Shown here piece after piece: positions 32,911 through 52,033 of a stretch of DNA of 64,000 nucleotides (position 1 is its first letter; every line of letters begins with the position of its first letter). The DNA lies in the NCBI GenBank assembly GCA_002841765.1, contig PHAV01000004.1, positions 59,075 to 123,074 on the forward strand. The letters run 5' to 3'. The notes below the pieces were generated by a model. That model made no database searches, was not told the origin of the DNA, and was given only the letters and a program-made list of their open reading frames with translations. The DNA comes from Deltaproteobacteria bacterium HGW-Deltaproteobacteria-4. GTDB taxonomy: Bacteria > Desulfobacterota > Desulfuromonadia > Desulfuromonadales > UBA2197. The position numbers and the translations under genes were made by a program.

Positions 32911-32963
32911 GACGTCCATAAAAAAGAGCAGCCTCTTATCGGGGCTGCTCTTTTTATGGACGT
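32911..32963. terminator. Bidirectional intrinsic terminator shared by ahpC (+) and the DUF11 operon (-)
   Basis: GACGTCCATAAAAAAGAGCAGCC-N8-GGCTGCTCTTTTTATGGACGTC, an extended palindrome with A/T runs on both sides. Confidence 0.85.
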
Positions 32964-32971
32964 CTTTCTGA

Positions 32972-35809
32972 CTACTTAATCCTGACTCTGAATTTGACGT
33001 TAAAGGCCGGGTGATTCGTGCCATCTGATCCGTTGAAGGTTCCGCTTAAGGGAATCTTGATATCGGTAACAGACGGGTCGCACTGGTTACTGTCCGGCGC
33101 GGTATTGCTCTTGAGGTAGATATCTGCACCGTTATTTCCGGAGAAGGCAAGGTTGTCCGTTGTGCTGGCCAGACTGGTAAAGGTGTAACTGAGGCCGCTC
33201 GGAATGGGACCATCGGTAAAGAGGACCGGTCCGGAACCGGCCCCATTGATATCACCGACAAAAAGTTCGGTGTTGGCCGGAATCGGGTCGGTAATGACGG
33301 TGCTGTTGTTGTCAACGGCTCCGGGGCCGGTATTGCTGACCGAAATAGTGTATGTCATAAAAGCGCCGGGAATCGCTTTGGGCAAGCTTGTACCGTTGAT
33401 CGGGTCGGAAAAGGTCTGCGCTGATTTAATCACCAGGAGACTCGGTAACGGACTGATCACGGAGGCGCTTTTTATGCCGTAATCGCTGACCGTCCCTTCC
33501 GTCCCCTCGAAAGCATGAACCAGTGCGGTCCAGTTGCCAGAAGTGTTGAGCGTATAGGGGCCATATTCGAAGGTTTTAGTTGCCGGGGTGGTCAGGGCGC
33601 TGAGTTCTGTCATCGGTCTGGCTGTGACCGCGACCGTGCCGTCAGGTTTGGTGAGCGTGAGGGTTGGTAGTGTAGTCGGCTGACTGGCGTTGATGTCATA
33701 ACTGCCGAAGGGATCGCTGATTGTGCTGCGGATGTAGACAATTTTCCCTGGAGCGGCAGAGGTGACAACGCTCCCGGCCGGGTAGGCAGCGTCGTAGTAG
33801 GTAATGGAGTCGACATTGATGACGGTGCTGGCCGGGAGTTCGACCCGCGATCTCCCCCAGGTGGGGTTGGTGATGTAAACGCGCATACTATCAGTCACTG
33901 CGGCGGCAGTGTTGGTGACAGTTAACTCCCACCGGTTGCCTGCGGCACAGGTGACTGGTGTTGTCCAGGGTGGTGTCGGCGTTGACAAATCGAATCGTAC
34001 CATATCCTGATTGATGGTTAAATTGATCGTCTTGGTGTTGGTAAGGGTCGTCCCTCCCGAGGAACATTGCAGATCAACCTTGACGGTGCGGTTGCCGGGG
34101 TTGCTGTTGTACCGCAGGAGCAGATAGACCGGAACTGTGCTGTTGACCTTCGGATCGATAGTGATAGCCGCGGCGGCACCCGGATCCATCGTCCAGCGCT
34201 GCAAACCAGAGAGGGCGATTGTTGCATAGGATGTTGAGCTGTTGGGGGTGCGTGAGAGTTTATGCGCCGGTGTTGAAGTGCTATCGTACAGATAGAGCAG
34301 CTTGTTGCCGCTCCCTGTGACCGTCGCCGCCTGAACGGTGAGTGTCGGCGCTGCTGGTGTCCCCCCGAGGCCGCCGGGATTAGTGACGGTGGCGCTGTTG
34401 GCGATCGGTGTCCCTGCCGGGGTGGCGGCGGCAACGGTGACTTCGAAGACGATGGTTACGCTCCCTGACGCCGGCACAGTAATGCCGGTGAGATTAAGGT
34501 AGCCGGTGCCATTGGTCCCGCCGCCGGTTGTCGAGCTATTGCCGGCTCCGGCGGGGATACTTATAACCGTAAAGTTGTTGACATTGGCGGGGATATTGTC
34601 AGTAACAGAGACGCCGGTGGCAGTGTACCCCGAGTTCTCCTTGAGAGTGATGGTATAGCGCAGGACATCGCCGGGTTGAAGATCATCACCGTTCTTGTCA
34701 AGGACCCCCTTGGTCGAAGTCGAGAGGTCGGGAAAGTTTGCACCGATAATAGTATTGGTGTCACTGGCGCTGGTGCTTTTGTCGGTGACGGAGACAGAGG
34801 CGGTATTGGTGACGGTTCTCGTTCCTGAAGGGGCGGGACTGGCGGCCAGGGTCGCGTTAATGGCGAAAGTCACGCTGCTGTTAACCGGCATGGCAGGAAT
34901 GGTGATTCCGGCCCCCTGCATCGCGGCCACGGTCGTGGCCGGACAGGTCGTCCCGATCGCGCTGCATGAGACGGTGCTGACGGTGAGGTTAGGGGCAACC
35001 GGGTCGGTGAAGACGACATTGCTCAGAGCTGCACCGGTGGTGTTGGTAATTACGACTGTGTAGGTGGTGGCGGCGCCAGGGCTAAGCGCCGTCTTACCGT
35101 CGCTTTTACTGATGGAGGGGAGGACTACGACGTTGATCGAACCGTATTCGACATTAGTGGCGAGCAAGGTGTTCGGCGAGTTGCATTTAGAAGTCGTCCC
35201 GGGGAGGGCATCGGCAATCGAAGTGCAATTGGCTCTTTTTTGATGATCCCAGCTGACGACAAAGGGAATAAAGAGTTTGCCATTACTCAGGTCGACGGCT
35301 TGGCAAAGGACCGGGACATCGTAGAGTCGCACGATGCCCGAGCCTGTGCCGCCGTTAATAGTAGGATTGCCGTCGCCGCAGGTATCGGTGCTGCCGTACT
35401 GTTCGATATCGGTAAAGGGGCTAATAGTTGGCAGGATGCCGACAGTGCAGCTATCAGCGCCGCCACTGGCAGGGAGGAGCTTCGGCGTCTTGCCGTCCCG
35501 GGAAAGGAAGATGCCGACATCATAACGATCAGGCTGGGCAAAATTAACCGTAATATCGAGGTTGGCGGTGAAGGAGCTACCACCGACACAAGCGGTGGGG
35601 GTTCCCGGCGCAACAGAGATGCCGGTAATAGACACATCAGCGGCCGTGCACCCCAGATTTGAGTTGTAGCGCGCCGCCACACATTCGTTGTCGCCGTAGG
35701 CCATTACTGCCGACGCCAAGGTAAGTATGAAGGCACATGTTAAAGCGACAGCGATCAGTGCAGAGCGCAAGAGTTGTCGCCGGTGTAGACCATTATTTGC
35801 AAAGATCAT
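32972..35809 (-). CDS. Secreted 945-aa DUF11-repeat protein (protein J), paralog of the 1389-aa protein but lacking the lectin-like head
   Basis: Signal peptide with an RR motif (NNGLHRRQLLRSALIAVALTCAFILTLASAVMA). DUF11-type repeats (e.g. LQPGDVLRYTITLKENSGYTATGVSVTDNIPANV). The C-terminal ~230 aa are near-identical to protein E and end in FNVKFRVRIK. Confidence 0.85.
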   Translation of the reverse strand: MIFANNGLHRRQLLRSALIAVALTCAFILTLASAVMAYGDNECVAARYNSNLGCTAADVSITGISVAPGTPTACVGGSSFTANLDITVNFAQPDRYDVGIFLSRDGKTPKLLPASGGADSCTVGILPTISPFTDIEQYGSTDTCGDGNPTINGGTGSGIVRLYDVPVLCQAVDLSNGKLFIPFVVSWDHQKRANCTSIADALPGTTSKCNSPNTLLATNVEYGSINVVVLPSISKSDGKTALSPGAATTYTVVITNTTGAALSNVVFTDPVAPNLTVSTVSCSAIGTTCPATTVAAMQGAGITIPAMPVNSSVTFAINATLAASPAPSGTRTVTNTASVSVTDKSTSASDTNTIIGANFPDLSTSTKGVLDKNGDDLQPGDVLRYTITLKENSGYTATGVSVTDNIPANVNNFTVISIPAGAGNSSTTGGGTNGTGYLNLTGITVPASGSVTIVFEVTVAAATPAGTPIANSATVTNPGGLGGTPAAPTLTVQAATVTGSGNKLLYLYDSTSTPAHKLSRTPNSSTSYATIALSGLQRWTMDPGAAAAITIDPKVNSTVPVYLLLRYNSNPGNRTVKVDLQCSSGGTTLTNTKTINLTINQDMVRFDLSTPTPPWTTPVTCAAGNRWELTVTNTAAAVTDSMRVYITNPTWGRSRVELPASTVINVDSITYYDAAYPAGSVVTSAAPGKIVYIRSTISDPFGSYDINASQPTTLPTLTLTKPDGTVAVTARPMTELSALTTPATKTFEYGPYTLNTSGNWTALVHAFEGTEGTVSDYGIKSASVISPLPSLLVIKSAQTFSDPINGTSLPKAIPGAFMTYTISVSNTGPGAVDNNSTVITDPIPANTELFVGDINGAGSGPVLFTDGPIPSGLSYTFTSLASTTDNLAFSGNNGADIYLKSNTAPDSNQCDPSVTDIKIPLSGTFNGSDGTNHPAFNVKFRVRIK

Positions 35810-35907
35810 GATTTTCCAGACAATTGGTCAGGACAATAATTCATCGAGTATAAGATGGTGGCTGATGATAAGCCGCTGTCGTTGCACCGGCATAAGGAAT
35901 GTAACTT

Positions 35908-38900
35908 TTAAAACTGTTGCAGTGCCTCACGCACTGAATTCTGGTCGAACTTGAAGCGGAACTTGACGAACGGTCCCTGGGCGGTGAAGTCAGCGGCAGA
36001 GAAGTCGCGGTCGGTAAAGCCGATAAAGTTATAGCCGACACTGAACCAGGCATTCTTGACCAGATTGTAACCGATGGAGGCGCCACTACCGTATTTTAAT
36101 TGTTTCGCCTGCCAGGAATGAAGCACCTTACCGGTGACGCCGACATCCCATTTACTTGTGAGATCATAGCGCCCTTCCAATCCCGTCAGGTCGGTGTAGC
36201 CGCTGTAGTCGTGTTCATCGATCGTTTCATTAACGTACTTGGCGCCGTATTGCAGCGAAAGCTGCGTCTTGCGATTATGACTCTTCCAGTTAGCGTTGAT
36301 ATTGTTGATCAGCCGCCAGTTGTCATAATTAAAGTCGCCGCCCTGCTGCTTGTCGAAGAGATAATCGAGACGGTTCAGCACAATCCAGGCAGTCTCTTGC
36401 GGCCGATAAGCGAGACTGAAACGGAGATCGCCGTTGGTCTCCTTGGCACCGGCAATACCGTTGGTTTTAAAAATCTGAGCGGCAGCCCCTAAACCAAGAC
36501 CGTCCTGAACTTCGCCGTAGATGCCGGTAAAGAGACCGAACTTGTCTTCCTCATCCGAGGTCCGCATCTCCAGACGACCGGTCCAGGACCAGTTTTCTTC
36601 CTTATACGAAGCCCCGCCAGTGATGGCCGTATAGTCCGAGGTGCCGGCAGCGGCCGGGACATTGACGTTAAAAGGTGCAGTCCCTGATTTTCTGATGGTG
36701 TCGCTCCGGTCGAGTCCGGCGTCAACACTCCATTTCTTCGAGATTTGCCAGGACTGTTTGAGCCCGCTTACCGAGAAGACACGCGTACCATTCTCTGAAG
36801 ATTGCTGTTCCATGGACGAACTGACCTGTCCCCCTGCCCACGGTGAAGATCTCAGGCCGATCCGCGTCATCTGCGTCCGTTCCAGCGAACCCCGGCTCAA
36901 TTCGTGGGCAATAAAGAAGCTCACGCTTTCGCTTAACCTGTAATCAGCACCGATCAAAGTTCGCGTCGGAAAGTCGGCGTTGTCATTGCTGTTGTGCAGC
37001 GATTGGTCATGTTCCGCTCGCAGGGTCAATTTGTCGCCAAAGAGGCTATAGGTGCCGCCGCTGATAAATTGGTCTGAAGTATTATTCTCACCATTTCCCA
37101 AATTATCCTGGGCGTGTCTCAACCCTGCGCGCAGGGAATAACCCTTTTCACTGAAAGCGGTTTGAACTTCAGCCATATCCCTGACAGCGTCCGTGCCAAG
37201 ATTGTTTTGGCGGAAGGCTCCGGTCTGCAAGCTGACCTTTTCATTCCAGCGGTAAGTTCCATCCACGCCGATCTTTCTCGTACCGCTTTCACTTCCCATC
37301 TGTTGACCCAGACCGAAATCATTATCCTGTTCACGCAGATAAATCTTGCCATCGACGACCTTGGTCCGGTGCGAAATTTCTGCCAGATAAGCGATACCGC
37401 TGGCGCTGCTGCCAACGAAGTCGTTTTCGGTTGTTGCCACTTCCGCTTTGATGATCGTCTCTTCCGTGAGCTTGATGGTGGTATCGAGCCCGGAGAGATT
37501 ACCTTCGCCGCCAACACGACCTTCATGGACATGAGTGGCGCCGACTTCGACGCGCTTATCCATGAAGCGCAGTGCTCCTCGTCCGCCGTAATTGTAGGAT
37601 TTGTCGCCGGTATCTACGGATTCATAGTTAATGACGATGTAGATCGGATTAAAGTTTTCATCACGATGGTAAACAGGGCTCTTGAAGAAGAGGGTCCCCT
37701 TTTCGTAATCGATGTCGTAGTCGATATGCCGGTTCAGCTTTTGTGAAGAGATCACCACTTCACTTTTGAACCGATCGCGACTTTCGATGGTGATCGTCTC
37801 GGAGTTAATGACGAGATCTGTTCTTGACAAGCGGTAAAGACCGGAAGTGCCGTCGCCGCGCAGTTCATCCTTGACAAAGGCCTGGTTGGTGTCGCTGACA
37901 AAGAGATTGAAATCAAGATTTTCGCTCTTCATCTCCGACTTCAGACCGTTAAAATTCCGGCTGTAGCGGGAAAGTTCGGTCACCGAGAGCCCGGTATCAT
38001 AATCACCAAAGAGCGCATAGAACTGATCGCGCTCAATCTTGAGATAAAGACTGCGGGCACTGGCGGCCTCATACTGTTGTGACGAAGCGTCGCCGTAAAG
38101 GGTGTAATACTGCTGCGGGTCGATCGTGCCGTAGAGACTTCCGGCCTGACGCATTCCCGCTTTAGCGCTGTCGTAGGCTGCGGTCAGAAGCCATTTCCCC
38201 TGGATCATCCCTTTGGCAAAGAAGGCGAGTCGGCCATCTTCATAATATTCATCATCGATCTGCGAAGCTTTGATGTTCTCCAGATTTCCCGAGAGGGAGT
38301 TATATCCCGCTGTCCCTTCGGCAAAACCGACAATGATCCATTCCCGTTCACCCGGAGTCAGCCAGGCGCGCACTTCGCTTTCTCCCTTAACGAAATTGAA
38401 GCGCAGGGTCGCCTCGCCGGTCTGGGTGGTCGGTTGCAATTCAATGCGGGCGATACCGTCTTCGTCGACCAGATACTTCAGGCGTGCACTCTTGGCAAGC
38501 AGCAGCGGGTTCTCTTTGAGGTCTTTTTCCAGTTGCAAAGGGAGGTAAGGGGGGTCGAGTTGATACTCACCGACCAGTCCTGCACGGGCAGGGTGGCCGT
38601 CTTTGTCGGTCAAACGGACAGCGATCACCGAAGGGAATTTGCCATCTGCGGTCAGCCGCGATTGACCCGGCATCACTTCAGCTTTAACCGGAGAGGTCGA
38701 ATAGTGCAGAGTGCGGGCAACACGGCGCACTTCCTGGCCATCGACAGAGCTTTCAACCGCTTCAAAGAGGTTGTCACCGTCGCTCAGGTGAATGCCGATC
38801 CAGAGGCTAATTGCGACCTGGTTGTCACCCCGCTTTTTGGTGCCGTCAAGATAAAGGGGATCGACCTCTTTACCGTTGAGCAACAGTTTGAGTCTCTTCT

Positions 38901-41682
38901 GCGGATCATGAGTCACAGCGATCTTGGCACTGGGGATGGCGGGATAAAAACCGTTATAGGGCCAGACAAAATTGAGACTGGGCTGAGCTGTTTCGAGCCA
39001 CGTATTATCGAATTCCGGCATGGTGCGGGCGATTTTACGCTCTTTTCTGACCTTCTCCGCCGCCGAGACTTCGGCCAGTTTCAAGGCAGTGACATCGACC
39101 GTTTTAAGGCCACTGTATTCCTTGATATTTTCGAGTTTGGTCCATTGATTGACCAATTCTGTCAAAATCTTTAATTCCACCCGGCGATTCAGTGCGCGGC
39201 CTTCTGCGGTTTCATTGCTGGCGATCGGTTCATCCGGACCCTTGCCGGCAATCGTCACTTGCTCCGGCAACAGGTTAAGGCCGGCCTGCAGATAATCGAC
39301 GACTGATTTCGCCCGGGCCTTCGAGAGTTCATAGTTGTCGGCCATGATGTGTCGACTGCGAGGGGCGATGCGGGTGCTATTGGTATGACCGGTGGCAGAG
39401 ATCTGGCTCACATGCACATTTTTAAATTCGGCGATGATCCCGTCGAGAACTTTTTTGTCAGGATCGGAAAGCTCGTAACCAAACTCATCAAAATACGGGC
39501 GCAGAATAATCGCCGGGATCGACCTGCGTTCGCTGGTGGATTCATTCTTAAGGATATTATCGACCAGCGGCGTGCGCTTGTTCTTCTCTTCGCTGGTATT
39601 GAAGGTCAGCAGCGCTTTCGCCGTCAACTCGCCGTTCTTGAGATGTGGAACCAGTGTCCCCTTTAATCTGATCTTGCCTGTCCAATCCGCCGGACTGTCT
39701 CCCAGGCGATAGGTGAGAACACTTTCCGTCACTTCCGGGTCGGCCAGAGCAAGACCATCGCGGCTGCTGCTAGCGCCTTGATAAATCACCCCATCGGGGA
39801 GGATCACTGTCAAGCGCATATTCGTCGTCGGCACTGCGCCGACATGGAGTGTCACCGTATAAGTGACGTCATCACCGAGCGTGCTTGCCAACTCAAGTCC
39901 GACAGATCCCTGCACCGGTGGGGCTTCCGGCTTTTTCTTGGTGTAAAAATCAGCGCGCCAGAGGGTTCCGCCTTGCAGATCGACAAATTGGGAGAAGGGC
40001 GTCCCGGCAAAGCGACTATTCTCTTCACAGCTGATGAGTTCATACTCGTTCGGAATCGTCTCCAGGTCGAGTTGAACAACATGCGTCCCGGCCTGAATTC
40101 CTTCAAAGTGATACATCCCCTGCAGGTCGGTGATGACGTAAGTACCATTTTCCAGGTAAAGACGTACGCCGGCAAGTCCATCACCCTCTGCGCCGTCATT
40201 CGGGCAGCCGTTGGGATAGACGCGACCGACAATCGTCGTCTTGCTGGAGAAGAGATCCTCTTTAACGACTATTTCGAACTTGGCAATATTGGAAGTGATG
40301 CCGCCGCTGCCGGTGGCGGTGGCAATATTGACCGCCGGTCCCAAGGGTGCCGCGACTGCCACTTCGACGACATAAGTGATGGTCATACTCTGCCCGGCGG
40401 CGAGAGTGCCGACGGTAAAGAGCATGCTTCTGCCGTCGGTTGAGAGCGTCGGGTCGGCAGCACTGACGCCATCGATTTTGGTCGAGCCTTTGCGGTAGCG
40501 CAGGCCAAGGGGGAGGCGGTCGCTGAGCACAACGCTGTTGACAGCGAGAGTCCCGGTATTCTCGGCGGCAATGCGATATTGCAGGAAATCACCGATGGCG
40601 ACGATCGTTTTCGAGGCGGTTTTGTTCAGACGCAGCCAGGTCTGCTGGGGATCGAGAGGGATATCGATATGGAGCGCCGGCCCGGGATTGATCAGGAAGA
40701 CCTCGCCACGGGATCCGGGGTTAATGGCAAAGGGGGCACCGGGGAGGGTCTGAATCTCACTGGTGGAGACCGTCGAGGGGGCAAGATAGCCCGAACCCGC
40801 TGGCGGTGTCACTACGAGGAGATATCTTCCCGGCTCGACAAAAGGAAAACGATAAAATCCATCCGGGAAGGTATAGATGCGTCCAGAGCTGTCGGTGACT
40901 GTTCCCCCTGAAGTTATCGTCGAGGGATAGATGCTGACACCGTCATCGCCGTAAATAGTCGCCGGCAGACCGGTAGCGGCATTGATGAAGGTAATGGTCG
41001 CACCATTCACCGGCAAACCGGTCATGCTGTCAAAGACTATCCCGTAGGGGTCAACAAGGGCACTCGCCGCCGAACTGTCAGTGCCATCGACGACATCAGT
41101 GTAACGCCCCTGAACCCGTGTATTCTGCTGGACGAAGAGGAGACCGTTCCCGGAGGTACTGGTGCCGGTGGTTGTTGACTGGATATAACCGGTGAAGATG
41201 CCGGTATCCGGACCGGTCTCAGTGAGACGCAAGATCTCGGATTCACTCGTTCCCGGAATGGTCAGGGTGACAATGACTGACTCGGCGACGGCGGGGTCAA
41301 GATTTTGGTCGAGGTCGCTCAAACGCAGAAAGAACGGCTCGTTTTCATGGTAGACCGTTGCCAGCACCAGCGGCAGGGTGCCGAGAGTCAGGGGTGCCGA
41401 TGCGCCGAGGGGAAGGGGGGGCGGCATCGGGATAAAGCTGCCGGCAGCAAAATAGCTGGTCGTTGCCACTGGCAGGAGTAAGAGTTTTTCGGGATCAGTG
41501 ACTGAGGGGGCATAAGTCAGGAAATCGAGTTGCGACGGGGTGCGGATGACGGTTGAGACCAGGTTCGATTCTCTAGTCTGGGGCAGAGTGTCGACGTGAT
41601 AGCTGGCATAGGCGGTATTGTCGACAGTTACGGCGGCATGAGCAGAAGGAGCGAGGAGAACAAAAGCCAATAAGAACGTCAT
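35908..41682 (-). CDS. Giant (~1924 aa; up to 2004 aa if TTG 41922 is used) outer-membrane protein (protein I): DUF11 / SdrD-B-like modules + internal OmpA-C peptidoglycan-binding domain + large C-terminal beta-barrel-like region
   Basis: Signal peptide MTFLLAFVLLAPSAHA|A at ATG 41682. DUF11 (IVAIGDFLQYRIAAENTGTLAVNSVVLSDRLPLGL). SdrD-B/CarboxypepD-like (IVGRVYPNG...GVRLYLENGTYVITDLQGMYHFEGIQAGTHVV). OmpA-C (SATGHTNSTRIA...LSKARAKSVVDYL...AEGRALNRRVELKI). About 850 C-terminal aa are rich in alternating-strand patterns, Gly/Tyr/Asp turns, and end ...GPFVKFRFKFDQNSVREALQQF. Confidence 0.85.
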   Translation of the reverse strand: MTFLLAFVLLAPSAHAAVTVDNTAYASYHVDTLPQTRESNLVSTVIRTPSQLDFLTYAPSVTDPEKLLLLPVATTSYFAAGSFIPMPPPLPLGASAPLTLGTLPLVLATVYHENEPFFLRLSDLDQNLDPAVAESVIVTLTIPGTSESEILRLTETGPDTGIFTGYIQSTTTGTSTSGNGLLFVQQNTRVQGRYTDVVDGTDSSAASALVDPYGIVFDSMTGLPVNGATITFINAATGLPATIYGDDGVSIYPSTITSGGTVTDSSGRIYTFPDGFYRFPFVEPGRYLLVVTPPAGSGYLAPSTVSTSEIQTLPGAPFAINPGSRGEVFLINPGPALHIDIPLDPQQTWLRLNKTASKTIVAIGDFLQYRIAAENTGTLAVNSVVLSDRLPLGLRYRKGSTKIDGVSAADPTLSTDGRSMLFTVGTLAAGQSMTITYVVEVAVAAPLGPAVNIATATGSGGITSNIAKFEIVVKEDLFSSKTTIVGRVYPNGCPNDGAEGDGLAGVRLYLENGTYVITDLQGMYHFEGIQAGTHVVQLDLETIPNEYELISCEENSRFAGTPFSQFVDLQGGTLWRADFYTKKKPEAPPVQGSVGLELASTLGDDVTYTVTLHVGAVPTTNMRLTVILPDGVIYQGASSSRDGLALADPEVTESVLTYRLGDSPADWTGKIRLKGTLVPHLKNGELTAKALLTFNTSEEKNKRTPLVDNILKNESTSERRSIPAIILRPYFDEFGYELSDPDKKVLDGIIAEFKNVHVSQISATGHTNSTRIAPRSRHIMADNYELSKARAKSVVDYLQAGLNLLPEQVTIAGKGPDEPIASNETAEGRALNRRVELKILTELVNQWTKLENIKEYSGLKTVDVTALKLAEVSAAEKVRKERKIARTMPEFDNTWLETAQPSLNFVWPYNGFYPAIPSAKIAVTHDPQKRLKLLLNGKEVDPLYLDGTKKRGDNQVAISLWIGIHLSDGDNLFEAVESSVDGQEVRRVARTLHYSTSPVKAEVMPGQSRLTADGKFPSVIAVRLTDKDGHPARAGLVGEYQLDPPYLPLQLEKDLKENPLLLAKSARLKYLVDEDGIARIELQPTTQTGEATLRFNFVKGESEVRAWLTPGEREWIIVGFAEGTAGYNSLSGNLENIKASQIDDEYYEDGRLAFFAKGMIQGKWLLTAAYDSAKAGMRQAGSLYGTIDPQQYYTLYGDASSQQYEAASARSLYLKIERDQFYALFGDYDTGLSVTELSRYSRNFNGLKSEMKSENLDFNLFVSDTNQAFVKDELRGDGTSGLYRLSRTDLVINSETITIESRDRFKSEVVISSQKLNRHIDYDIDYEKGTLFFKSPVYHRDENFNPIYIVINYESVDTGDKSYNYGGRGALRFMDKRVEVGATHVHEGRVGGEGNLSGLDTTIKLTEETIIKAEVATTENDFVGSSASGIAYLAEISHRTKVVDGKIYLREQDNDFGLGQQMGSESGTRKIGVDGTYRWNEKVSLQTGAFRQNNLGTDAVRDMAEVQTAFSEKGYSLRAGLRHAQDNLGNGENNTSDQFISGGTYSLFGDKLTLRAEHDQSLHNSNDNADFPTRTLIGADYRLSESVSFFIAHELSRGSLERTQMTRIGLRSSPWAGGQVSSSMEQQSSENGTRVFSVSGLKQSWQISKKWSVDAGLDRSDTIRKSGTAPFNVNVPAAAGTSDYTAITGGASYKEENWSWTGRLEMRTSDEEDKFGLFTGIYGEVQDGLGLGAAAQIFKTNGIAGAKETNGDLRFSLAYRPQETAWIVLNRLDYLFDKQQGGDFNYDNWRLINNINANWKSHNRKTQLSLQYGAKYVNETIDEHDYSGYTDLTGLEGRYDLTSKWDVGVTGKVLHSWQAKQLKYGSGASIGYNLVKNAWFSVGYNFIGFTDRDFSAADFTAQGPFVKFRFKFDQNSVREALQQF

Positions 41683-41934
41683 GCAGAGATGACGGCAAAG
41701 TTCAGCGCGTTTCGCGAACACTTCACTGCAGGAAGGACTCGCGGTACGGTCTGAAAGAAGCCCCGCAGCGAAGGAAGAACGACGGCTTTGCATCGCCACT
41801 CTTCCCCCGATGCGGGTCATGATGAAGTGTGCAGCACAAAGGCGCAACACGGCGCTGCCGCCGGGAATGATCCCGGCGGTGAAGCGTCGTATTACTGCCT
41901 TTATGCTGCTCAGAGTCGACAAACTGTTTCCTGA

Positions 41935-43179
41935 TTACTGAATAATAACGTTGAAAGTTAATGTGAAGACTTCACCAGGCTTCAATTCCCCGACCGTGTA
42001 ACTGGCTTCGGCGGGGAGCAAGGTTGCAAGGGTGGCCGTGATTGCCTGCCCCGAAAGCTCAACACCATCGGCATCGCTGGTCGTTGTGTAGTACTTAGCA
42101 ACATTTCCGCCAGCAAGGCCGCTACCGGCATTGCCGATTCGACTCCCGGTCACTGATGCCTTGAAACCAGATCCTGCTGCAGATTCAGCTGCAGGCGTTG
42201 CCGGCGTGCTGAAATCAGTCAACAAATCAGCATCCATGAGCAAGCTGGCAATCAGGGTGTCACCGATGCTGGTGAGGGTCGCGGAGGAGGGAGCTCCCGC
42301 GTCATTGGTAATCGTCACAACATATTGCACAATGGCACCGGGGATCGCTTTCGGAGTGGTGGTGTAATTGATCGGATCCCAGAGCGTCGTTGCTACTTTA
42401 TTGACAGAAATATCAGCCGAGGAAACAACGAAGACGCTATAAGCCGAATCTGCCCCATCAAGATTGCCATCTTCTGGACCCGTCCCGGCAGCCGTATCAG
42501 CCAGAACAACGGGGACCGCTGCCGTACAGCCCGGACCATTATAAGTCGATGCATTGGTCGTCTCTGCACCCAGGGCAGCTGCAGTACCACCGGCAGCTGT
42601 ATTTGCATTCAGCGCATAAACCGCTTTACTGCCATTGGCCAAGGCAACAGCAATAGCCGGGGTTCCGGTGGCAACGATATAAACGGTTCTAGATGTATCT
42701 GGTGCAAGTTCGTCGATGTAAGTGGCAACATCTAATACGTCATAACCGACTGCGTCGCCCGATTCGACAACGACGACGACGCCGGAAGCGTTAAAGGTAT
42801 CGACGGAATCGTTCGCTGCCCAGACGGTGTAAGTGCCATTTGCTTTAGTGACCGGGGTAAGGATGTAATCCTGAACGGTATTACCAATATTTGTGACGGT
42901 AAATTCTAACACCGCTTGCAGGGTGCCGGTGCCGGGCACAACAGAGACCCCGGGAGCCGCGTCTGCCGTTATGACCGTGAGATTGACCTTACTCGCGACC
43001 TCAAAAGGTGTAGCAGTGCCATTTTCTACAGGTTGAGTCACTCCTCCGACAGCGTAGGTAAGGGATGCCGTGTTCGTGATGTCTGTACAGACCGGTGTGC
43101 CTGCGGCCAATGCCGATAGCGGCGTCATTGCCGCGAAAGCGGCAGCCAAAAGAAATGCTGATAAACGGGTTCTTTTCAT
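41935..43179 (-). CDS. Secreted 415-aa DUF11-type pilin-sized protein (protein H)
   Basis: AGGAGAG lies before ATG 43179. Signal peptide MKRTRLSAFLLAAAFAAMTPLSALA|AGTP. The mature N-terminus TDITNTASLTYAVGG is shared with protein F. Terminal module WDPINYTTTPKAIPGAIVQYVVTITN. Ends FTLTFNVIIQ. Confidence 0.85.
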   Translation of the reverse strand: MKRTRLSAFLLAAAFAAMTPLSALAAGTPVCTDITNTASLTYAVGGVTQPVENGTATPFEVASKVNLTVITADAAPGVSVVPGTGTLQAVLEFTVTNIGNTVQDYILTPVTKANGTYTVWAANDSVDTFNASGVVVVVESGDAVGYDVLDVATYIDELAPDTSRTVYIVATGTPAIAVALANGSKAVYALNANTAAGGTAAALGAETTNASTYNGPGCTAAVPVVLADTAAGTGPEDGNLDGADSAYSVFVVSSADISVNKVATTLWDPINYTTTPKAIPGAIVQYVVTITNDAGAPSSATLTSIGDTLIASLLMDADLLTDFSTPATPAAESAAGSGFKASVTGSRIGNAGSGLAGGNVAKYYTTTSDADGVELSGQAITATLATLLPAEASYTVGELKPGEVFTLTFNVIIQ

Positions 43180-43263
43180 GGTGCTCTCCTTTTTTGCTGG
43201 TTGTAGTTGTTCTTGCGGGACAATTCCCAGGTGTAAAAGCCAACCCCCTATTTCCAATGTTCG

Positions 43264-43758
43264 TTATTTCACTTTAGCTTTGTAAGAGACGCTGCCCTTG
43301 GCGCCGTCTTGCAGGGCTCCTTCGAATGTCCAGCGGATGTGGGTGTAGTCCGCTGCGCTGGCCGGTTGCTCCTTTCCTTCGGCATCCTTGATCTTCAATT
43401 TGTCGGCCGCGGCGAAGATTTGACCCTTATCAACAGAGAAATCGATGCGCGCCCCTTTCCCCTCGGCCGTATTGTCAAGATAGAGCATATGCTCCGGCAG
43501 CGGATTGTTGATGACCACATTCGTTGCCGGTTTATCTCCCTGGTACTCATAGTGCGTAGTAAAGATGATCGTATCGCCGGGGGTAACATTGGTATCTGCG
43601 GCGGAGACACGAACGGTCTCCTGCTCCCCTTTATCATTCTTGACGATGATATCGATCTCGGCGGTTGACTTGAGTTCGATCCCTTTTTTCTCGGCGGCAC
43701 TGGCGGGGAGGGCGACCAGCACGAGAAGGGATAAAATGGCTAGCAATTTTTTTGTCAT
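43264..43758 (-). CDS. Secreted single-domain DUF11 protein, 164 aa (protein G)
   Basis: Signal peptide MTKKLLAILSLLVLVALPASA|AEKK. One DUF11 repeat (VTPGDTIIFTTHYEYQGDKPATNVVINNPLPEHMLY). Ends SVSYKAKVK. Confidence 0.85.
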   Translation of the reverse strand: MTKKLLAILSLLVLVALPASAAEKKGIELKSTAEIDIIVKNDKGEQETVRVSAADTNVTPGDTIIFTTHYEYQGDKPATNVVINNPLPEHMLYLDNTAEGKGARIDFSVDKGQIFAAADKLKIKDAEGKEQPASAADYTHIRWTFEGALQDGAKGSVSYKAKVK

Positions 43759-43808
43759 AAGTGACTCCTATCTGTCTGGTTCTCTTGAAAAATTTTACGT
43801 TTATCGCT

Positions 43809-44822
43809 TTAGTTGATCGTCACATCGAAGGTGATAGTCTGCTCCGGGGAAGCATTGGTCAGATCGCCGAGACCGACGGTGACCGTCACTGGCGCGCCAG
43901 CGACACTGCCGACATCAAGATCAGCGCCATCGCTTAGCGGTGCGCCGTTTAATTTAAGGGAGCTAACGACATAGGTGGAGTTATCAGGTATTTCGTCGGT
44001 GATCACCACGTCTGCGGCAGTACCGACACCGGTGATGGAGGCTTTGATGCTGTAGGTAAGGATGGCGCCGGGGATTGCCTTCGGAGTGACGAAGAGATTA
44101 GTCGGGTCCCAGGTAATTACCACCGATTTGTTCAAAACCAGAGAAAGGAGGTTGACGGTATAGGTCCCTTCTGACGAGTGTTTTCCGTCACGAGTAGTAT
44201 CACCGGCGGCACTGCCGGCATTATCGGCAAAGATGACATCAACGCCGGCGGTATTAGGGCCGACAGTTGCAGTTGTCACAGTCGTGGTGCCGGCATCGAC
44301 TGTCGTAGCAACAAGTTGATAATCTGATATGTCCCCACTGACCGCCCCTGCCGGGGTGTCGGCAATGATCAAGATTGCAAGGCTGTCATCCGCATCAACG
44401 TCACCAAAGGTGGCAGCGTTGACATAGAGAGTGTCACCGGCATCCAGAACGCCGGGAGTGGTGCCGTTGTCGAGGAAGATGCGGACATTATCCATGACAA
44501 TGCCGGCGCTGTTGGTTGCGTCCAGGGCATAGCGCTGCGTGGTATTGCCTTCGTTCTTGACTGAAAAGACAAGGGCTTGATCGGTTGATCCGGGTAAAAC
44601 AGTGGCGTCACCATTTTTAGTCACCGTCAGGTTGACCTTGTTGTCGACAACGATATTCGGAGCCGATGCGGTCTTGGTCACCGGAGTAGCGCCATCGTTA
44701 TAGGTGGCGGTTGCCGTGTTAGAGATATCCGTCCCCGACGGGGTTCCGGCTGCATAGGCCGCTTGAGTGAGCGGATAGCAGAGCGCCAGGAGCAGAGCGA
44801 TGGTGGCAATCTTTTTTGTCAT
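43809..44822 (-). CDS. Secreted 338-aa DUF11-type pilin-sized protein (protein F)
   Basis: AGGGAGG lies before ATG 44822. Signal peptide MTKKIATIALLLALCYPLTQAAYA|AGTP. TDISNTATATYNDG. Terminal module WDPTNLFVTPKAIPGAILTYSIKA. Ends QTITFDVTIN. Confidence 0.85.
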   Translation of the reverse strand: MTKKIATIALLLALCYPLTQAAYAAGTPSGTDISNTATATYNDGATPVTKTASAPNIVVDNKVNLTVTKNGDATVLPGSTDQALVFSVKNEGNTTQRYALDATNSAGIVMDNVRIFLDNGTTPGVLDAGDTLYVNAATFGDVDADDSLAILIIADTPAGAVSGDISDYQLVATTVDAGTTTVTTATVGPNTAGVDVIFADNAGSAAGDTTRDGKHSSEGTYTVNLLSLVLNKSVVITWDPTNLFVTPKAIPGAILTYSIKASITGVGTAADVVITDEIPDNSTYVVSSLKLNGAPLSDGADLDVGSVAGAPVTVTVGLGDLTNASPEQTITFDVTIN

Positions 44823-44907
44823 GGTGTACCTCCCTTTCTTTTCTTGTGTTGAACCGGGTTTGAAAAGTTGTGAGCGAATAAAAAATCCATATCTTGTTCC
44901 TTTCTGA

Positions 44908-47900
44908 TTATTTGATCCTGACTCTGAATTTGACGTTGAATGAGGGGTGATTGGTTCCATTTGAACCATTAAAGATGCCGATTAAGGGGATTTTTATATT
45001 GGTAACTGTCGAGTCGCAGCCGTTAATGTCCGGTGCTGTATTGCTTTTGTCGTAATTCGTGCCGCCATTGCCGGAAAAGGCGAGATTGTCAGTGGTGCTG
45101 GCCAGACTGGTAAAGGTGTAGCTGAGGCCGCTCGCAGTCGTGCCATTGTTAAAGAGGACAGGACCGATCGATGGCCCGGCACCGTCGAAGTCGTCGACAA
45201 AGAGTTCGGTGTCGGCCGGAATCGAATCGGTAATGACGGTGGTGTTGCTGTCAACTGCGCCGGCGCCAAAGTTGGTGACCTGGATGGTGTAGTCGACAAA
45301 AGCGCCGGGAATTGCTTTGGCTCCTGCTCCTTCACCATTAACCGGGTCGGAGAAGACCTGTGATGATTTGACCACCAGCAGGTTCGGCATCGGCACGATG
45401 ACGCTCAAGGCTTGCAGTGCGTAATCACTGACCGTCCCCTCGGTCCCCTCATTGGCAACGACGCGGGCGGTCCAATTTCCGGCCGGGCCGCCGGCCGGGA
45501 TGGTGTAGGGGCCGTACTGGTAGATCTTGGTGGCGGCGTTTGAATCGTAGGCTACGCTCATGGCGACCGGAGCAGGCGAACCAATCCGGGTAACACCGGA
45601 GGGGTCAGTCAAAGTCAGGGTGGCGCCGGTGATATCGTAACTGCCGAAGGGGTCACTGACCGTGGCGCGGATATAGACCGTGCTTCCGACAGTCAGCGAG
45701 GTAACGCTGCTGCCGCCAGGGTAGAGGGCAGTATGGAAGGTGATGTCGCTGTTATTGATGTTGATGACGTTTTTCGAGTTGATAGTGACCATCGACGAGT
45801 TTCCGGTCGACGGCGCTGGGTAGACGTTGATGTTGCGTCCAGTTCCGGTGCCTCCCTGGGTGTTGGTGATGTCCATGATCAGGGCGTTGCCGCTGGCACA
45901 GGTGTAATCAGTTGACGATACAGGAGTGAGGGTAAAGTCGTAGCGGACGGCGCCTCCGACGACTAAGTCGGCGCTTAGTGAGGTTGTGGCGACGCTCGTT
46001 CCGCCGCACGTCAGCGTAATCGGGATGGTATAGGTACGGTTGCTGTTGGTCGAGAGCCAGAGGGTCACCGGAATATTGCCGTTGCTGATCGTCACATCCG
46101 ACTGCAGGGCCGGGTTGAGCGTCCAACTCTGGGTAATGCTGCCGCGGGGGATCGCGACAATAGAGCCGGCTGCGGTCGGCATCGGTGTGCGCGAGAGTTT
46201 ATAGCTGGGGGTTGAGCTGTTGTTATAGAAGTAGAGGGGTTTGTTCCCGGAACCCGGTAGCGAGCCGCTATTGACGATCAGTGCTGGCGCATCGGGATTG
46301 GCGCCGATGCCGCCGGGGACGGTGACCGTGGCACTGTTGTCGATGACCGTCCCCGTCGCGGTGCCGAGGGGGATGGTGACATCGTAAATGAGCGTGACGC
46401 TGCCGCTGGCCGGGACGGTGATGTTGGTGATATACAGGTAGCCGGTACCATTACCGCCGGTACCGAAGGGGGTCGAGAGGTTGGTGGCGCCGCCCGGCAG
46501 GGGGAGAATGACACTAAAACCGCTAGTGTTGTTGGGGATGGTGTCGGTCACCGACACGTTGCTGGCGCCAACTCCGGCAGTTTCAGTCAGGGTGATAGTG
46601 TAGCGGATGACATCACCGGCCAGGGGGTCGCCGCCGCTGGTGCGGTTAATCCAGTTTTTCGTTGAGGTCGAGAGGTTAGGAATAGCGACAGTTGTGGTGT
46701 CGCTGACGTCACGGGTCTGGCTCGCCAGGCCGGTGGTATATGTGGCGCGGGTAACGACAGTGTCAATCGTTCCGTTCGTGGCGCTGCCCGGAATCGTCTC
46801 ACGCACCAGGATGCAGATATTTTCGTTGGCTTCGAGATTGACCGCCGCAGTGATATCCGATTCGCCGGCATCGAAGCTGCCGTTGCAGTTGTTGTCGCGC
46901 ACATAGGTAATCGCCGGCCAACCCCCCTGGGTACGGCTGTTTGTGGTAAACGTGACATTGCCGCGGGCTGTGGCGGTGAAGATATGCGCGTAGTAGACCG
47001 GTGTTGATGAGTTGCCGACTGCGCTTAAAGGGGTCGGTGTGAAGTTGATAGTGATCGGCGGCGGTATATCGCCGAAAATGAGATTGAAGTAGTCGGTATA
47101 GAGGGTATAGGCAAACTGCTGATATTCACCGGCAATGGTGTAAGTACTGCCGGTCGTGCCGGAGTTATAGCTGACCGAGGTGTAGCCGGCGAGATTGTTT
47201 TCATAGATACGCAGGGTGGCGCTGGCGGTGTTGGTGAAGAGGGCGAAGTTGCCGCCGGCATCGGTGGTGACGGTATCGTAGGTGGTGGTTCCGGTGCTAT
47301 TGCGCAGCGTCAACGTCACCCCGGCGATGCCGGTCTCGGCGGCATTGAGAATACCGTCATAAGCGGTGGTGATACTGCCGTTGAAGCCGTCATCCTTGAT
47401 CACTTTGCCGCTGATGCGACTGCCGTTGTAAAGGAAGAAGTTCCGGTTGGTCAGATTGGCGCCGCTGGCGACAACTCCGCTCAGGGTATAGTTGATGGGG
47501 GTGACATAGATCCAGTTGGCGCTCGGAAAGCTCGGGTCGTAGACATTGACGGTGTTGGTGGAGCTGAGAATGACGACATAATCACCGTAGCTCGGGACTC
47601 CGGAAAAAGTGTAAGTGCCGAGAGTAGTGCTGACCTGCACAGGGGCGACGACAGTGGTACTCAGGTCGCTGGCGCGAAAAAGTTTGGCATAATAGGTCTG
47701 GCCAGTGACCTGGGATTCGCCGCCGTCGCGCACGCCGTTGTGGGCGATGCCGCCGCTAAAACCGTTGTCATTGTACACCGTGCCGCTGATGCTGATCGTG
47801 CCGCTGCTGACGGTGGTGCTGACACTGGCGCTGTTGTCGGCCGGCAGATAGTCAATGATGCCGGCCGGCGGCGTCAGGGTGGCGGTGTTGACCAGGACCG

Positions 47901-49077
47901 TGCCCTGTGGGGTAGCGGCGGCGACCGTGCCGGTGATGGTATAGGTGGCAGCGCCGTTAAAGGGGAGGGTGGCCGTGGTGTTAATGTTGTTGCCGCTCCC
48001 TGCAGCGGCGCCGCAGGTTCCGCCACCGGAGCCGGCGCAGGTCCAGGTAACACCGGTTAACGCTGCCGGGACAGTATCGACGATCGGTACGTTGTTGGCG
48101 ACGGTCACCAGGTTGGGGCCGTAGTTGCGGGCGGTGACGGTATAGGTCAATGCGCCGCCGGGAGCGACGGTCGGGGCAGAAGCGGTTTTCGCGATAGCGA
48201 GATTGATGTTTATCGGTAGGTTGTCGATGGCGAGATTGCGGATTTCGTGATAGTTGGTCGAACCGCCGGTACTGGCGGCATAGCCGACCTTGACCGTGCT
48301 CGGGATCGGCCGCATGGTGTAAAGGGTGTCGACCAGATAGGTCAGGGGCTGGTTGTAGCCAAATTGCATAAAGACATCGACACGCATGTATTCCGGTGCG
48401 GCGACCGGCGTCAGGTAGATGACGACCTTGCGATACTGGCTGCTGAGTTGGCCGGGGCGAAAGGCCTGATTGTACCAGAGGGTGCCGATGTTGGCAGCCG
48501 TGCCGCCAATGTAGTAATAGGCGCCGAGGGAGTGGTCGTAGGGGCCGCGCACTGCCACTGAATTTTGCCGCTGGCCCGGACCACCCAGCCGACCTTCGGT
48601 CGGATTGGAAAAATTGCCGTACTCGTCGATACCGACACCGATATAGCCGCCACTGAGACCGGGGGAAACAGGCGCGACGGTCTTTTTATCGTAGCCAAGG
48701 GAGCCGCCCGAGGCGCCGACCTGAAAGGTTGTAGCGTTATAGGCGCCGTCAAAGAGATAAATACTGTAACCGTCGGCACCGTTGCCGCCCCAGGTGGCGT
48801 AGTCGAACTGGATGACGACTCCCTGTGAAATGTCGAAGGAGCTGTCATACATGGCAAAGCCGGATTGGTTGCCGGTCGGTTCGGTCAGACGCAGCCAGCC
48901 GTTGCCGGGGGCGTCGACACCTGTGCTGGCGGTGAGGTAGGCTGCACCGCCAATGACCCAGCCGGGGGCGGTGGCACCGGTCATTGGCTGGTCGAGGAGG
49001 GCAGCCTGACCCGGCAAAGCCAGGCCGATGGCCAGGATCAGGATTGCGATAATAATTAATGGGTTTCGATTTTTCAT
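44908..49077 (-). CDS. Secreted 1389-aa adhesin-like protein (protein E): L-type-lectin-like head + DUF11 + two SdrD-B-like modules + shared C-terminal region
   Basis: Signal peptide MKNRNPLIIIAILILAIGLALPGQA|A. Lectin-like motifs (GWLRLTEPTGNQSGFAMYD..., GADGYSIYLFDG, GGYIGVGIDEYGNFSNP). DUF11 (VAPGGALTYTVTARNYGPN). SdrD-B-like (ISGTVYNDNGFSGGIAHNGVRDGGE...GTYTFSGVPSYGDYVV; ISGKVIKDDGFNG...GNFALF). Ends FNVKFRVRIK. Confidence 0.85.
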   Translation of the reverse strand: MKNRNPLIIIAILILAIGLALPGQAALLDQPMTGATAPGWVIGGAAYLTASTGVDAPGNGWLRLTEPTGNQSGFAMYDSSFDISQGVVIQFDYATWGGNGADGYSIYLFDGAYNATTFQVGASGGSLGYDKKTVAPVSPGLSGGYIGVGIDEYGNFSNPTEGRLGGPGQRQNSVAVRGPYDHSLGAYYYIGGTAANIGTLWYNQAFRPGQLSSQYRKVVIYLTPVAAPEYMRVDVFMQFGYNQPLTYLVDTLYTMRPIPSTVKVGYAASTGGSTNYHEIRNLAIDNLPININLAIAKTASAPTVAPGGALTYTVTARNYGPNLVTVANNVPIVDTVPAALTGVTWTCAGSGGGTCGAAAGSGNNINTTATLPFNGAATYTITGTVAAATPQGTVLVNTATLTPPAGIIDYLPADNSASVSTTVSSGTISISGTVYNDNGFSGGIAHNGVRDGGESQVTGQTYYAKLFRASDLSTTVVAPVQVSTTLGTYTFSGVPSYGDYVVILSSTNTVNVYDPSFPSANWIYVTPINYTLSGVVASGANLTNRNFFLYNGSRISGKVIKDDGFNGSITTAYDGILNAAETGIAGVTLTLRNSTGTTTYDTVTTDAGGNFALFTNTASATLRIYENNLAGYTSVSYNSGTTGSTYTIAGEYQQFAYTLYTDYFNLIFGDIPPPITINFTPTPLSAVGNSSTPVYYAHIFTATARGNVTFTTNSRTQGGWPAITYVRDNNCNGSFDAGESDITAAVNLEANENICILVRETIPGSATNGTIDTVVTRATYTTGLASQTRDVSDTTTVAIPNLSTSTKNWINRTSGGDPLAGDVIRYTITLTETAGVGASNVSVTDTIPNNTSGFSVILPLPGGATNLSTPFGTGGNGTGYLYITNITVPASGSVTLIYDVTIPLGTATGTVIDNSATVTVPGGIGANPDAPALIVNSGSLPGSGNKPLYFYNNSSTPSYKLSRTPMPTAAGSIVAIPRGSITQSWTLNPALQSDVTISNGNIPVTLWLSTNSNRTYTIPITLTCGGTSVATTSLSADLVVGGAVRYDFTLTPVSSTDYTCASGNALIMDITNTQGGTGTGRNINVYPAPSTGNSSMVTINSKNVININNSDITFHTALYPGGSSVTSLTVGSTVYIRATVSDPFGSYDITGATLTLTDPSGVTRIGSPAPVAMSVAYDSNAATKIYQYGPYTIPAGGPAGNWTARVVANEGTEGTVSDYALQALSVIVPMPNLLVVKSSQVFSDPVNGEGAGAKAIPGAFVDYTIQVTNFGAGAVDSNTTVITDSIPADTELFVDDFDGAGPSIGPVLFNNGTTASGLSYTFTSLASTTDNLAFSGNGGTNYDKSNTAPDINGCDSTVTNIKIPLIGIFNGSNGTNHPSFNVKFRVRIK

Positions 49078-49170: not shown

Positions 49171-49208
49171 CAATAAAAAACGCTCATTTTCATCCCCGAA
49201 AATGAGCG
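49171..49208 (-). terminator. Intrinsic terminator in the 5' leader of the DUF11 operon (riboswitch expression platform)
   Basis: Minus strand reads CGCUCAUUUU-CGGGGAUG-AAAAUGAGCG followed by UUUUUUAUUGUUUUUU. It lies ~95 nt upstream of ATG 49077 and ~35 nt downstream of the aptamer. Confidence 0.8.
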
Positions 49209-49244
49209 CCTGAATAACTGCTTTTTCTGCGCAGTTAGATCATT

Positions 49245-49340: not shown

Positions 49341-49357
49341 AAACTAAGATTATTATA

Positions 49358-49387
49358 GTTATAGAACTTTAGACGTTAAATTGTCAA
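49358..49387 (-). promoter_or_regulatory. Candidate sigma70 promoter for the riboswitch/DUF11 operon (TTGACA-N18-TATAAC)
   Basis: Minus strand has TTGACA (49387-49382), an 18-nt spacer and TATAAC (49363-49358). The aptamer starts ~17 nt downstream of the -10. Confidence 0.5.
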
Positions 49388-52032: not shown

Positions 52033-52033
52033 G

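Follow-up and report, generated by a model that had tools for sequence, protein, structure and literature searches.

A six-gene operon at positions 32972-49077 of the minus strand, in a 64,000-nucleotide stretch of contig PHAV01000004.1 from Deltaproteobacteria bacterium HGW-Deltaproteobacteria-4 (this whole stretch is hereafter "the window"), likely encodes a conserved, self-contained fibre or adhesin system centred on a giant protein, I, whose C-terminus is predicted to form an outer-membrane barrel. On balance, we favour the view that the operon specifies a chaperone-free and sortase-free fibre, built by donor-hairpin complementation of a split CLIPPER domain. More tentatively, we raise the possibility of a new class of Gram-negative pilus, in which the subunits are chained covalently through a split isopeptide domain, I is at once terminator, anchor and translocon, and the genes belong to a cyclic GMP-AMP (cGAMP) regulon in Geobacter-like bacteria. 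The window derives from a groundwater metagenome, and its nearest relatives are Desulfuromonadales. Six open reading frames (ORFs), all co-directional, fill the interval in the order E-F-G-H-I-J:

44908-49077, minus strand: E, 1389 residues
43809-44822, minus strand: F, 337 residues counted from its ATG
43264-43758, minus strand: G, 164 residues
41935-43179, minus strand: H, 414 residues
35908-41922, minus strand: I, 2004 residues in its long form, 1924 from an internal Met
32972-35809, minus strand: J, 945 residues

The intergenic gaps measure 85, 50, 84 and 98 nucleotides, with 12 nucleotides between H and I if the long form of I is used. The original prediction, made from the letters of the window, had proposed six co-directional genes for secreted proteins; these ORFs are confirmed, and all six products have N-termini that resemble signal peptides when judged by eye. 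Its sizes for E, G and J stand, and those of 338 for F and 415 for H are replaced by the values given above.

The proposed mechanism turns on one domain family. DUF11 has been renamed CLIPPER, a CnaA-like domain with an intramolecular Lys-Asn isopeptide bond whose formation is catalysed by an Asp; in PDB entry 9IFR, whose domain runs to residue 828, the bond joins Lys715 to Asn806 and Asp748 is the catalyst (PMC12617251). Pfam and NCBIfam models detected DUF11/TIGR01451 in E, F, G, I and J. Against a cut-off of 24.6 bits, PF01345 scored 52.8 in E and 56.8 in J; F reached 19.5 bits with this model but 32.7 bits with TIGR01451 (cut-off 24), and the CLIPPER similarity of H was seen only via the family profile. 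Complete domains in E (K297/D334/N397, ending near residue 423) and in I have Lys-Asp, Lys-Asn and Asn-to-end spacings that match those of 9IFR, and the isopeptide Asn can thus be placed in the penultimate strand, which bears the string N-T-A. As judged by this comparison, the complete domains of E and I carry the Lys-Asp-Asn triad; the bond itself is predicted.

The C-terminal modules of E, F, H and J, by contrast with these complete domains, align as CLIPPER domains cut after strand F. A profile of the F and H tails matches positions 14-93 of the 127-residue canonical domain (hhalign probability 97%, E-value 6.8e-11), and both proteins end exactly where the alignment stops, the last 34 residues (the Asn strand and the final strand) being absent. 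The same abrupt ending, within a few residues, is found without exception among 93 relatives from databases, 88 neighbours in genomes and the tails of 28 tip proteins. In protein E, the alignment to the tail hidden Markov model (HMM; E-value 2.2e-18) extends to the final residue. The tails of E, F, H and J retain only the Lys and Asp of the triad; the Asn is missing because its strand is absent. A candidate for that strand lies at the other end of the subunits: mature F and H start A-G-T-P-x-x-T-D-I-x-N-T-A, and mature I begins V-T-V-D-N-T-A. This N-terminal motif, of the general form G-T-x-I-x-N-T-A, is close to the string leading up to the Asn where E and J have a complete domain. The original prediction had already noticed a tail motif common to E, F, H and J and a common mature start in F and H, and both are confirmed. 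Its picture of a self-contained, uncharacterised locus with E and J as alternative tips and I as an envelope platform is likewise supported, although it missed the logic of the split domain and the donor motif of I. The segments concerned in the subunits and tips are as follows (A2 numbering is explained below):

43812-44150, minus strand: acceptor tail of F, a truncated CLIPPER domain with K233 and D277 (A2 numbering)
44640-44753, minus strand: mature N-terminus of F, candidate donor hairpin with N36 (A2 numbering), assigned by motif and conservation
44911-45345, minus strand: acceptor tail of E, a CLIPPER domain stopping right after strand F
32975-33421, minus strand: acceptor-only tail of J, after its CLIPPER domains

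Conservation points to the same division of labour. In A2, an alignment of 42 F/H sequences whose reference starts one codon earlier (A2 numbers are F numbers plus 1), the sole invariant columns are N36, V60, N94, K233 and D277. Among 88 independent F/H-like neighbours of I homologs, K233 and D277 are each present in 88/88 and N36 in 81/88; a genus census of F/H-like genes gave 282/291 for the Asn, 267/303 for the Lys and 1212/1272 for the Asp. In the tip tails, the acceptor Lys is kept in 25 of 28 and the Asp in 27 of 28. Selection thus appears to be strictest on a set of residues to which the isopeptide triad belongs, with one part of the triad at either end of the chain. As a separate observation, N94, which lies in the first Ig-like domain in the motif K-N-x-G-N, is also invariant (42/42 and 88/88).

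F has two Ig-like domains, and its AlphaFold2 (AF2) monomer has a predicted local distance difference test (pLDDT) score of 88; H is its paralog, with 38% identity over 268 residues. Fold searches with the F model returned middling Ig-domain matches (Z 7-9) that are compatible with CnaA and pilin domains and are not diagnostic, and sequence searches of the PDB with F, H and the CLIPPER domain of I found no relative. E and J have the truncated tail and no donor motif at the N-terminus. I lacks a truncated acceptor domain, and nearly all intact I homologs have the mature start A-T-P-x-G-T-x-I-x-N-T-A (the strict pattern in 49 of 57); this donor motif makes I the likely terminator and anchor. From these distributions we infer a polarity, with E and J as acceptor-only tips, F and H as shaft subunits, and I as a donor-only terminator and anchor.

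The genes of this system travel together. Of 80 loci collected from GTDB species, 47 extended far enough upstream to be used; the order shaft-G-shaft-I (F-G-H-I) is present in about 41 of these 47, often with a tip gene before or after it. Carriers belong to the Desulfobacterota, Nitrospirota, Gammaproteobacteria (Methylophilaceae, Thiobacillus and Sulfuriferula), Lentisphaeria, Latescibacterota, Krumholzibacteriota and Eisenbacteria, and the cultured ones include three Geomonas species, Desulfatibacillum alkenivorans and Desulfosarcina alkanivorans. In a census with a 271-residue stretch from the start of the barrel region, matches occurred in 1782 of 36145 genera and 59 phyla, most of them weak. 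With rising likeness to the barrel, an H-like gene lay within 5 kb in 0/90, fewer than 3/78, 42/75 and 30/54 carriers, and near random places in fewer than 3. The reverse census, in which fewer than five carriers were tried in the top likeness band, found a barrel no more than 6 kb away from F/H-like genes in 30/168, 60/75 and 45/54 carriers by rising likeness, and in none at random. The co-conservation of an F-G-H-I core across phyla, for which a test had been proposed, is therefore borne out, and the census shows linkage in both directions.

The locus also appears to stand apart from known machinery. Domain searches of the six proteins and ten flanking ORFs revealed no chaperone, usher, sortase or secretion-system gene, in agreement with the original prediction; specifically, no PapD-like chaperone (PF00345/PF02753) was matched in those sixteen products, no sortase was found in the operon or its flanks, and none of the six proteins has an LPxTG motif.

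The giant protein I is the centre of the proposed system, and its parts can be listed from the N-terminus onward:

41533-41634, minus strand: mature N-terminus with the donor-type motif V-D-N-T-A, assigned by homolog comparison
40258-40635, minus strand: CLIPPER domain, complete and including all of Lys, Asp and Asn (PF01345, 54.3 bits, cut-off 24.6)
39163-39495, minus strand: OmpA-C-like peptidoglycan-binding domain (PF00691, 47.1 bits, cut-off 27.2; residues 730-833)
38356-39018, minus strand: two Ig-like domains before the barrel (pLDDT 85-92; weak Invasin_D3 match at chance level)
35953-38352, minus strand: predicted giant beta-barrel, 32 or more strands in the model and a small beta domain inserted in it

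I probably starts at the upstream TTG (41922), because the approximately 80 residues before its hydrophobic signal core are conserved in distant homologs. This extension (41683-41922, minus strand) bears the motif R-R-x-x-x-G-I-I-x-G-x-x-A-x-L-R-L and has no Pfam match; in concept, it recalls the extended signal-peptide regions known from very large secreted proteins. The OmpA domain lies mid-protein, as had been proposed, and is absent from many I homologs. An AF2 model of the C-terminal part, built on 36 homologs (mean pLDDT 68.8, predicted template-modelling score 0.44), opens with two Ig-like domains modelled confidently; next come a highly conserved stretch of low confidence, a small beta domain and 32 long antiparallel strands. 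The last strand, F-x-K-F-R-F-K-F, is a typical C-terminal barrel signal that ends in Phe. The C-terminus of I, which had been described as barrel-like with an aromatic end, is thus predicted by this model to be a very large barrel of an unnamed family.

Attempts to name that family returned generic answers. The last 1075 residues of I matched no Pfam family even at E-values up to 10, save for the chance-level Invasin_D3, and no NCBIfam model; at the same limit, there was no match to the Usher family (PF00577) in this region, and none of the barrel to type V, LptD, Omp85/TamA or SprA family models. None of the outcomes named beforehand as contrary to the original prediction, clear homology of I to a characterised usher, autotransporter, LptD or intimin class among them, was observed. 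A PDB sequence search with the barrel profile found no relative. The TraB model (NF033763) scored 34.2 bits against a cut-off of 700, on the OmpA part only, and no TraA/TraB identification was obtained. The neighbours of the barrel in Foldseek and VIA-align were large barrels only (SlpA, LptD, SprA, TonB-dependent transporters and FimD), weak or tied: the best Foldseek match, SlpA, had a template-modelling (TM) score of about 0.25-0.29, FimD shared its Z of 13.5, over 317 residues, with many unrelated barrels, and TamA, LptD and SprA were weak, generic fold matches. Because these searches yielded generic large barrels only, we do not call the barrel usher-like, SlpA-like or LptD-like.

The barrel family is nonetheless well populated. 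More than 1900 database proteins match the last 1075 residues of I, with 50-60% identity over the whole stretch, in the Deltaproteobacteria, Nitrospirota, Acidobacteriota and other groups; I homologs are annotated only as "OmpA family protein" or "TIGR01451 repeat protein", and the ESM Atlas offers only unnamed outer-membrane-protein clusters of about 850 residues. The stand-alone barrel-like proteins of about 850 residues in those clusters come mostly from Pseudomonadota, and the barrel may also occur without the N-terminal stalk and OmpA domain. At two other loci (L003, 7270-13324, and L054), the giant gene appears as two ORFs on metagenome contigs, which suggests frameshift errors or decay. 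For L003, a natural two-gene split of I was considered and rejected in favour of a frameshift or assembly error, since the OmpA domain itself is interrupted by the break and the F-like gene next to it is in fragments.

The two candidate tip proteins share their tails and differ in their heads. The head of E has a weak L-type lectin match (32.5 bits against a cut-off of 78.3), and SdrD_B matches in E and I fall just below the cut-off; of the domains foreseen in E, DUF11 is secure, the SdrD-B modules are marginal and the lectin head is weak. J is 51% identical to E over 626 residues. It had been called headless, which is incorrect: J possesses a Cys-rich N-terminal region of its own, about 230 residues long, as well as an RrgB-type isopeptide domain (TIGR04226, 43.8 bits, cut-off 30). 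Tip proteins of other loci have the same tail joined to different heads (beta-helix, SpaA-type, or Cys-rich like that of J). E is probably a tip adhesin and J probably an alternative one, both of them acceptor-only.

Protein G occupies a distinct position. It consists of a single acceptor-shaped CLIPPER domain that also ends after strand F (PF01345, 27.5 bits, cut-off 24.6), and its gene always lies between the two shaft genes in the loci compared. Among its 54 relatives, the Lys is conserved in only 30% and the Asp position is Asn in 80%; G is also rich in Lys and Glu (11% Lys, versus 1-3% in E, F, H and J). Because the triad is absent and the protein is Lys/Glu-rich, G is unlikely to be a structural subunit. 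The original prediction had counted F, H and G as such subunits, and is upheld for the first two only. With low confidence, we suggest that G is a soluble, non-bonding acceptor, perhaps a reversible cap or chaperone for donor hairpins in the periplasm.

These features can be assembled into a hypothetical pathway. Sec export and cleavage by signal peptidase would expose the donor hairpin of F, H and I. The open CLIPPER domain of a tip protein, E or J, could then accept the hairpin of F or H; every F/H subunit so added would present a new open domain, and the chain would grow tip first. An Asp-assisted Lys-Asn bond may turn each joint covalent, in the manner of a natural SpyTag/SpyCatcher chain, while G may reversibly cap donor hairpins that await incorporation in the periplasm. 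The hairpin at the N-terminus of I would close the last acceptor and end the fibre, and I would anchor it, with the OmpA domain bound to peptidoglycan and the barrel in the outer membrane. That barrel, with its small inserted domain, is also the likely outer-membrane export conduit. The fibre is probably adhesive and located at the cell surface.

Several results weigh against this pathway. The donor segment showed nothing significant against the last hairpin of canonical CLIPPER, either with a custom HMM or with hhalign (E-value 0.047 over 9 columns), and a Pfam search with eight isolated N-termini gave no significant CLIPPER match; the hairpin is thus identified by its motif, its spacing and its invariance. 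Confidence in the barrel model is middling, with pLDDT below 50 at residues 262-392 and with strand number, closure and plug uncertain, and the stretch of about 730 residues that comes before the periplasmic OmpA domain in I is of uncertain topology. Further, the N-terminal strands of F are placed with confidence in its AF2 monomer (pLDDT 83-92), as would suit a self-complemented, closed form. This closure in cis is the main rival explanation: the hairpin of F or H would complete the C-terminal domain of its own chain as an intramolecular staple, only the pairing of E or J, one-to-one, with the N-terminus of I would occur in trans, and the product would be a tethered fibrillar adhesin and no polymer. 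Such a role would suit E and J, which are already long multi-domain stalks, and the CLIPPER bonds described so far are intramolecular (PMC12617251). However, structure predictors also self-close known donor-strand pilins, as in archaeal fimbriae (PMC11821415), and closure in cis explains neither the presence of two donor-plus-acceptor paralogs and G beside I in about 41 of 47 loci nor the linkage in 80-83% of carriers. We therefore consider it unlikely. A complex prediction for two mature copies of F, made with an alignment, had a median score of 0.28 (mark 0.42) and weighs neither way.

A second alternative, which we judge improbable, holds that I is mainly a tether between outer membrane and peptidoglycan or a porin, similar to SlpA, OmpM or OmpA, and that the other five proteins, as partners in the periplasm or at the surface, decorate it as part of an envelope scaffold. 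SlpA is indeed the best, if weak, Foldseek match of the barrel; the OmpA domain adjoins the barrel, and the part of I that precedes this periplasmic domain may itself remain in the periplasm. A scaffold of this kind accords poorly with the lectin-like head of E, with the variable adhesin-type heads of other tips (beta-helix, SpaA), or with the composition of E, F, H and J, which are Thr/Ser/Asn-rich and charge-poor, as in surface proteins. The absence of the OmpA domain from many I homologs also speaks against a tether, and the cyclic-dinucleotide riboswitch described below fits a conditional adhesin better than a housekeeping tether. Highly improbable, finally, is a type V-like arrangement in which I is a self-exporting autotransporter-type adhesin or the translocon of E and J, F, G and H are accessory and the motifs reflect common ancestry only: the C-terminal barrel, N-terminal Ig-like repeats and long conserved extension of I do recall large type V proteins, but no type V, usher, LptD, Omp85 or SprA model matched even at an E-value of 10, a peptidoglycan-binding domain between "passenger" and barrel is unsuited to an exported passenger, and the invariant split triad is left unexplained.

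Donor-hairpin complementation, the mechanism that we prefer, invites comparison with established pili. As in the chaperone-usher pili (type 1 and P, with the ushers FimD and PapC and the chaperones FimC and PapD), an incomplete Ig-like subunit fold would be completed by the N-terminal segment of the next subunit, a lectin-type tip head would lack a donor (FimH and PapG there; here E, by a weak match), a donor-bearing terminator would end the fibre (here I), and a large outer-membrane barrel platform, plugged in ushers, is encoded in the same operon. The differences are that the present system has no PapD-like chaperone and no Usher-family match; that its subunits are two-domain proteins of the CLIPPER/CnaA type with a Lys/Asp/Asn triad; that a two-strand hairpin, rather than one strand, would be donated; and that terminator, peptidoglycan anchor and barrel are fused in I, a protein of about 2000 residues. 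Ushers have 24 strands, whereas at least 32 are predicted for the barrel of I. With the sortase pili (SpaA, RrgB, Cpa) and with 9IFR, the system shares CnaA/CnaB-type Ig domains and Lys-Asn isopeptide chemistry, including the match of J to the RrgB isopeptide domain model, and here, too, the fibre is probably covalent, with an attachment to the cell wall. Yet there is no sortase or LPXTG signal, the host is diderm, the wall link would be non-covalent, via OmpA, and in place of a sortase-made bond from Lys to C-terminus we propose an autocatalytic domain bond split across chains.

By analogy, the nearest precedent for the combination of donor strands with isopeptide bonds is the thread filament of the archaeon Sulfolobus acidocaldarius, which is reported to join donor-strand complementation with inter-subunit isopeptide bonds and to have no dedicated chaperone (PMC9715654). 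No sequence relation was found, although no search was aimed at one, and the archaeal host has no outer membrane and no barrel. Type V pili of the Bacteroidota (FimA/Mfa1, with the anchor FimB/Mfa2) likewise form a strand-exchange polymer with tip, shaft and anchor in one Gram-negative operon, but their subunits are protease-activated lipoprotein precursors that donate C-terminal strands, and they have neither a split isopeptide domain nor a giant barrel-anchor fusion. The tethers SlpA (Deinococcus) and OmpM resemble I in joining a wall-binding domain to a very large C-terminal barrel; SlpA differs in its SLH and coiled-coil parts, in having no donor motif and no linked subunit genes, and in the weakness of the fold match. 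Read from its sequences, the present system seems to work like a chaperone-usher pilus with the chemistry of Gram-positive pilins, yet it lacks the defining marks of both. In the literature on DUF11, isopeptide bonds, ushers, donor strands and diderm pili, subscription journals lying outside our coverage, we found no description of it. We regard it as a probable new class of pilus-like fibre, whose mechanism we infer.

The region upstream of E bears on when such a fibre would be made. The original prediction had placed a promoter and leader here; the leader proves to contain a riboswitch of the c-di-GMP-I class (c-di-GMP, cyclic di-GMP) and an attenuator, which it missed:

49352-49379, minus strand: sigma-70-like promoter candidate, TTAACG-16-TATAAT, 10 of 12 consensus matches
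49254-49334, minus strand: GEMM-I (c-di-GMP-I, RF01051) aptamer, 59.6 bits, gathering threshold 35, E-value 3.9e-9
49178-49211, minus strand: leader terminator/attenuator hairpin, 15-bp stem and T-run, between the aptamer and the E start codon

The promoter candidate is a consensus match only, and such sites occur in the region at chance frequency. The aptamer match covers the full covariance model (positions 1-87), and the leader fold has z = -4.57. The unpaired consensus G before the first G-C pairs reads A in this aptamer; equating that column with G20 of Vc2 is our own assignment from the consensus structure line. By this A20 signature, the riboswitch is assigned to the GEMM-Ib, cGAMP type. 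In such aptamers, G20 reads one base of the ligand. Its replacement by A is characteristic of GEMM-Ib, the Geobacter subclass that senses cGAMP or both ligands, and naturally occurring A20 variants are able to bind 3',3'-cGAMP as well as c-di-GMP (PMC6140456). In Geobacter, GEMM-Ib switches turn on pilus, cytochrome and polysaccharide genes in particle-associated growth (PMC6456294). The leader resembles those switches in its full-length RF01051 match, its A at position 20 and the terminator that follows; it differs in its downstream operon, a type that we did not find named in PMC6456294 or PMC6140456, and its ligand is predicted from sequence. Of five related genomes, three have a GEMM-I aptamer with A20 immediately ahead of their tip gene, and hairpins analogous to the leader terminator follow the aptamer at loci L084, L085 and L086. 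A GEMM-Ib-type cyclic-dinucleotide riboswitch may thus gate transcription of the operon, and such control would tie the fibre to a surface-attached lifestyle. In another genome, that of locus L023 (G004, contig C30:123453-124642), four tandem GEMM-I matches lie within 1.2 kb, about 5 kb downstream of its I gene.

The genes around the operon are housekeeping genes: those for a GntR regulator, a fructose bisphosphatase and a peroxiredoxin on one flank, and those for an inositol monophosphatase and a radical SAM protein on the other. The strong bidirectional terminator that had been predicted downstream is visible as a hairpin, common to the operon and the convergent peroxiredoxin gene, which an automated pattern scan did not list:

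32918-32962 (approximate), both strands: candidate bidirectional intrinsic terminator, A-run, 8-bp G+C stem and T-run, read by eye

A porin-cytochrome conduit was ruled out as an identity for the operon, since the CXXCH motif occurs in none of the six proteins. Just upstream of the housekeeping genes (51436-54463, minus strand) are genes for a LysM and TPR protein of 208 residues and for one of 809 residues, in which TPR and coiled-coil parts are combined with several domains of CARDB/DUF11-like type (PF01345, 60.6 bits). The latter has neither the donor motif nor the truncated tail, and appears to be a separate envelope protein. At another locus (L002, 1-216), a gene for a spore-coat-protein-U (SCPU) subunit of the archaic chaperone-usher type and one for a sigma-54 response regulator lie just upstream of the cassette; that genome may carry both types of fibre.

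If the proposed mechanism is correct, the few recognised classes of Gram-negative pilus would be joined by one with a new assembly pathway, and Gram-negative bacteria would prove to make covalent fibres, which are so far known from Gram-positive sortase systems and archaeal threads. A very large, widespread and nameless family of outer-membrane barrels would be identified, one that may carry folded proteins, and protein engineering could draw on the split domains as a set of orthogonal isopeptide pairs from nature. For Geobacter-type organisms, cyclic-dinucleotide signalling would gain an adhesive output, with a bearing on attachment to minerals and electrodes.

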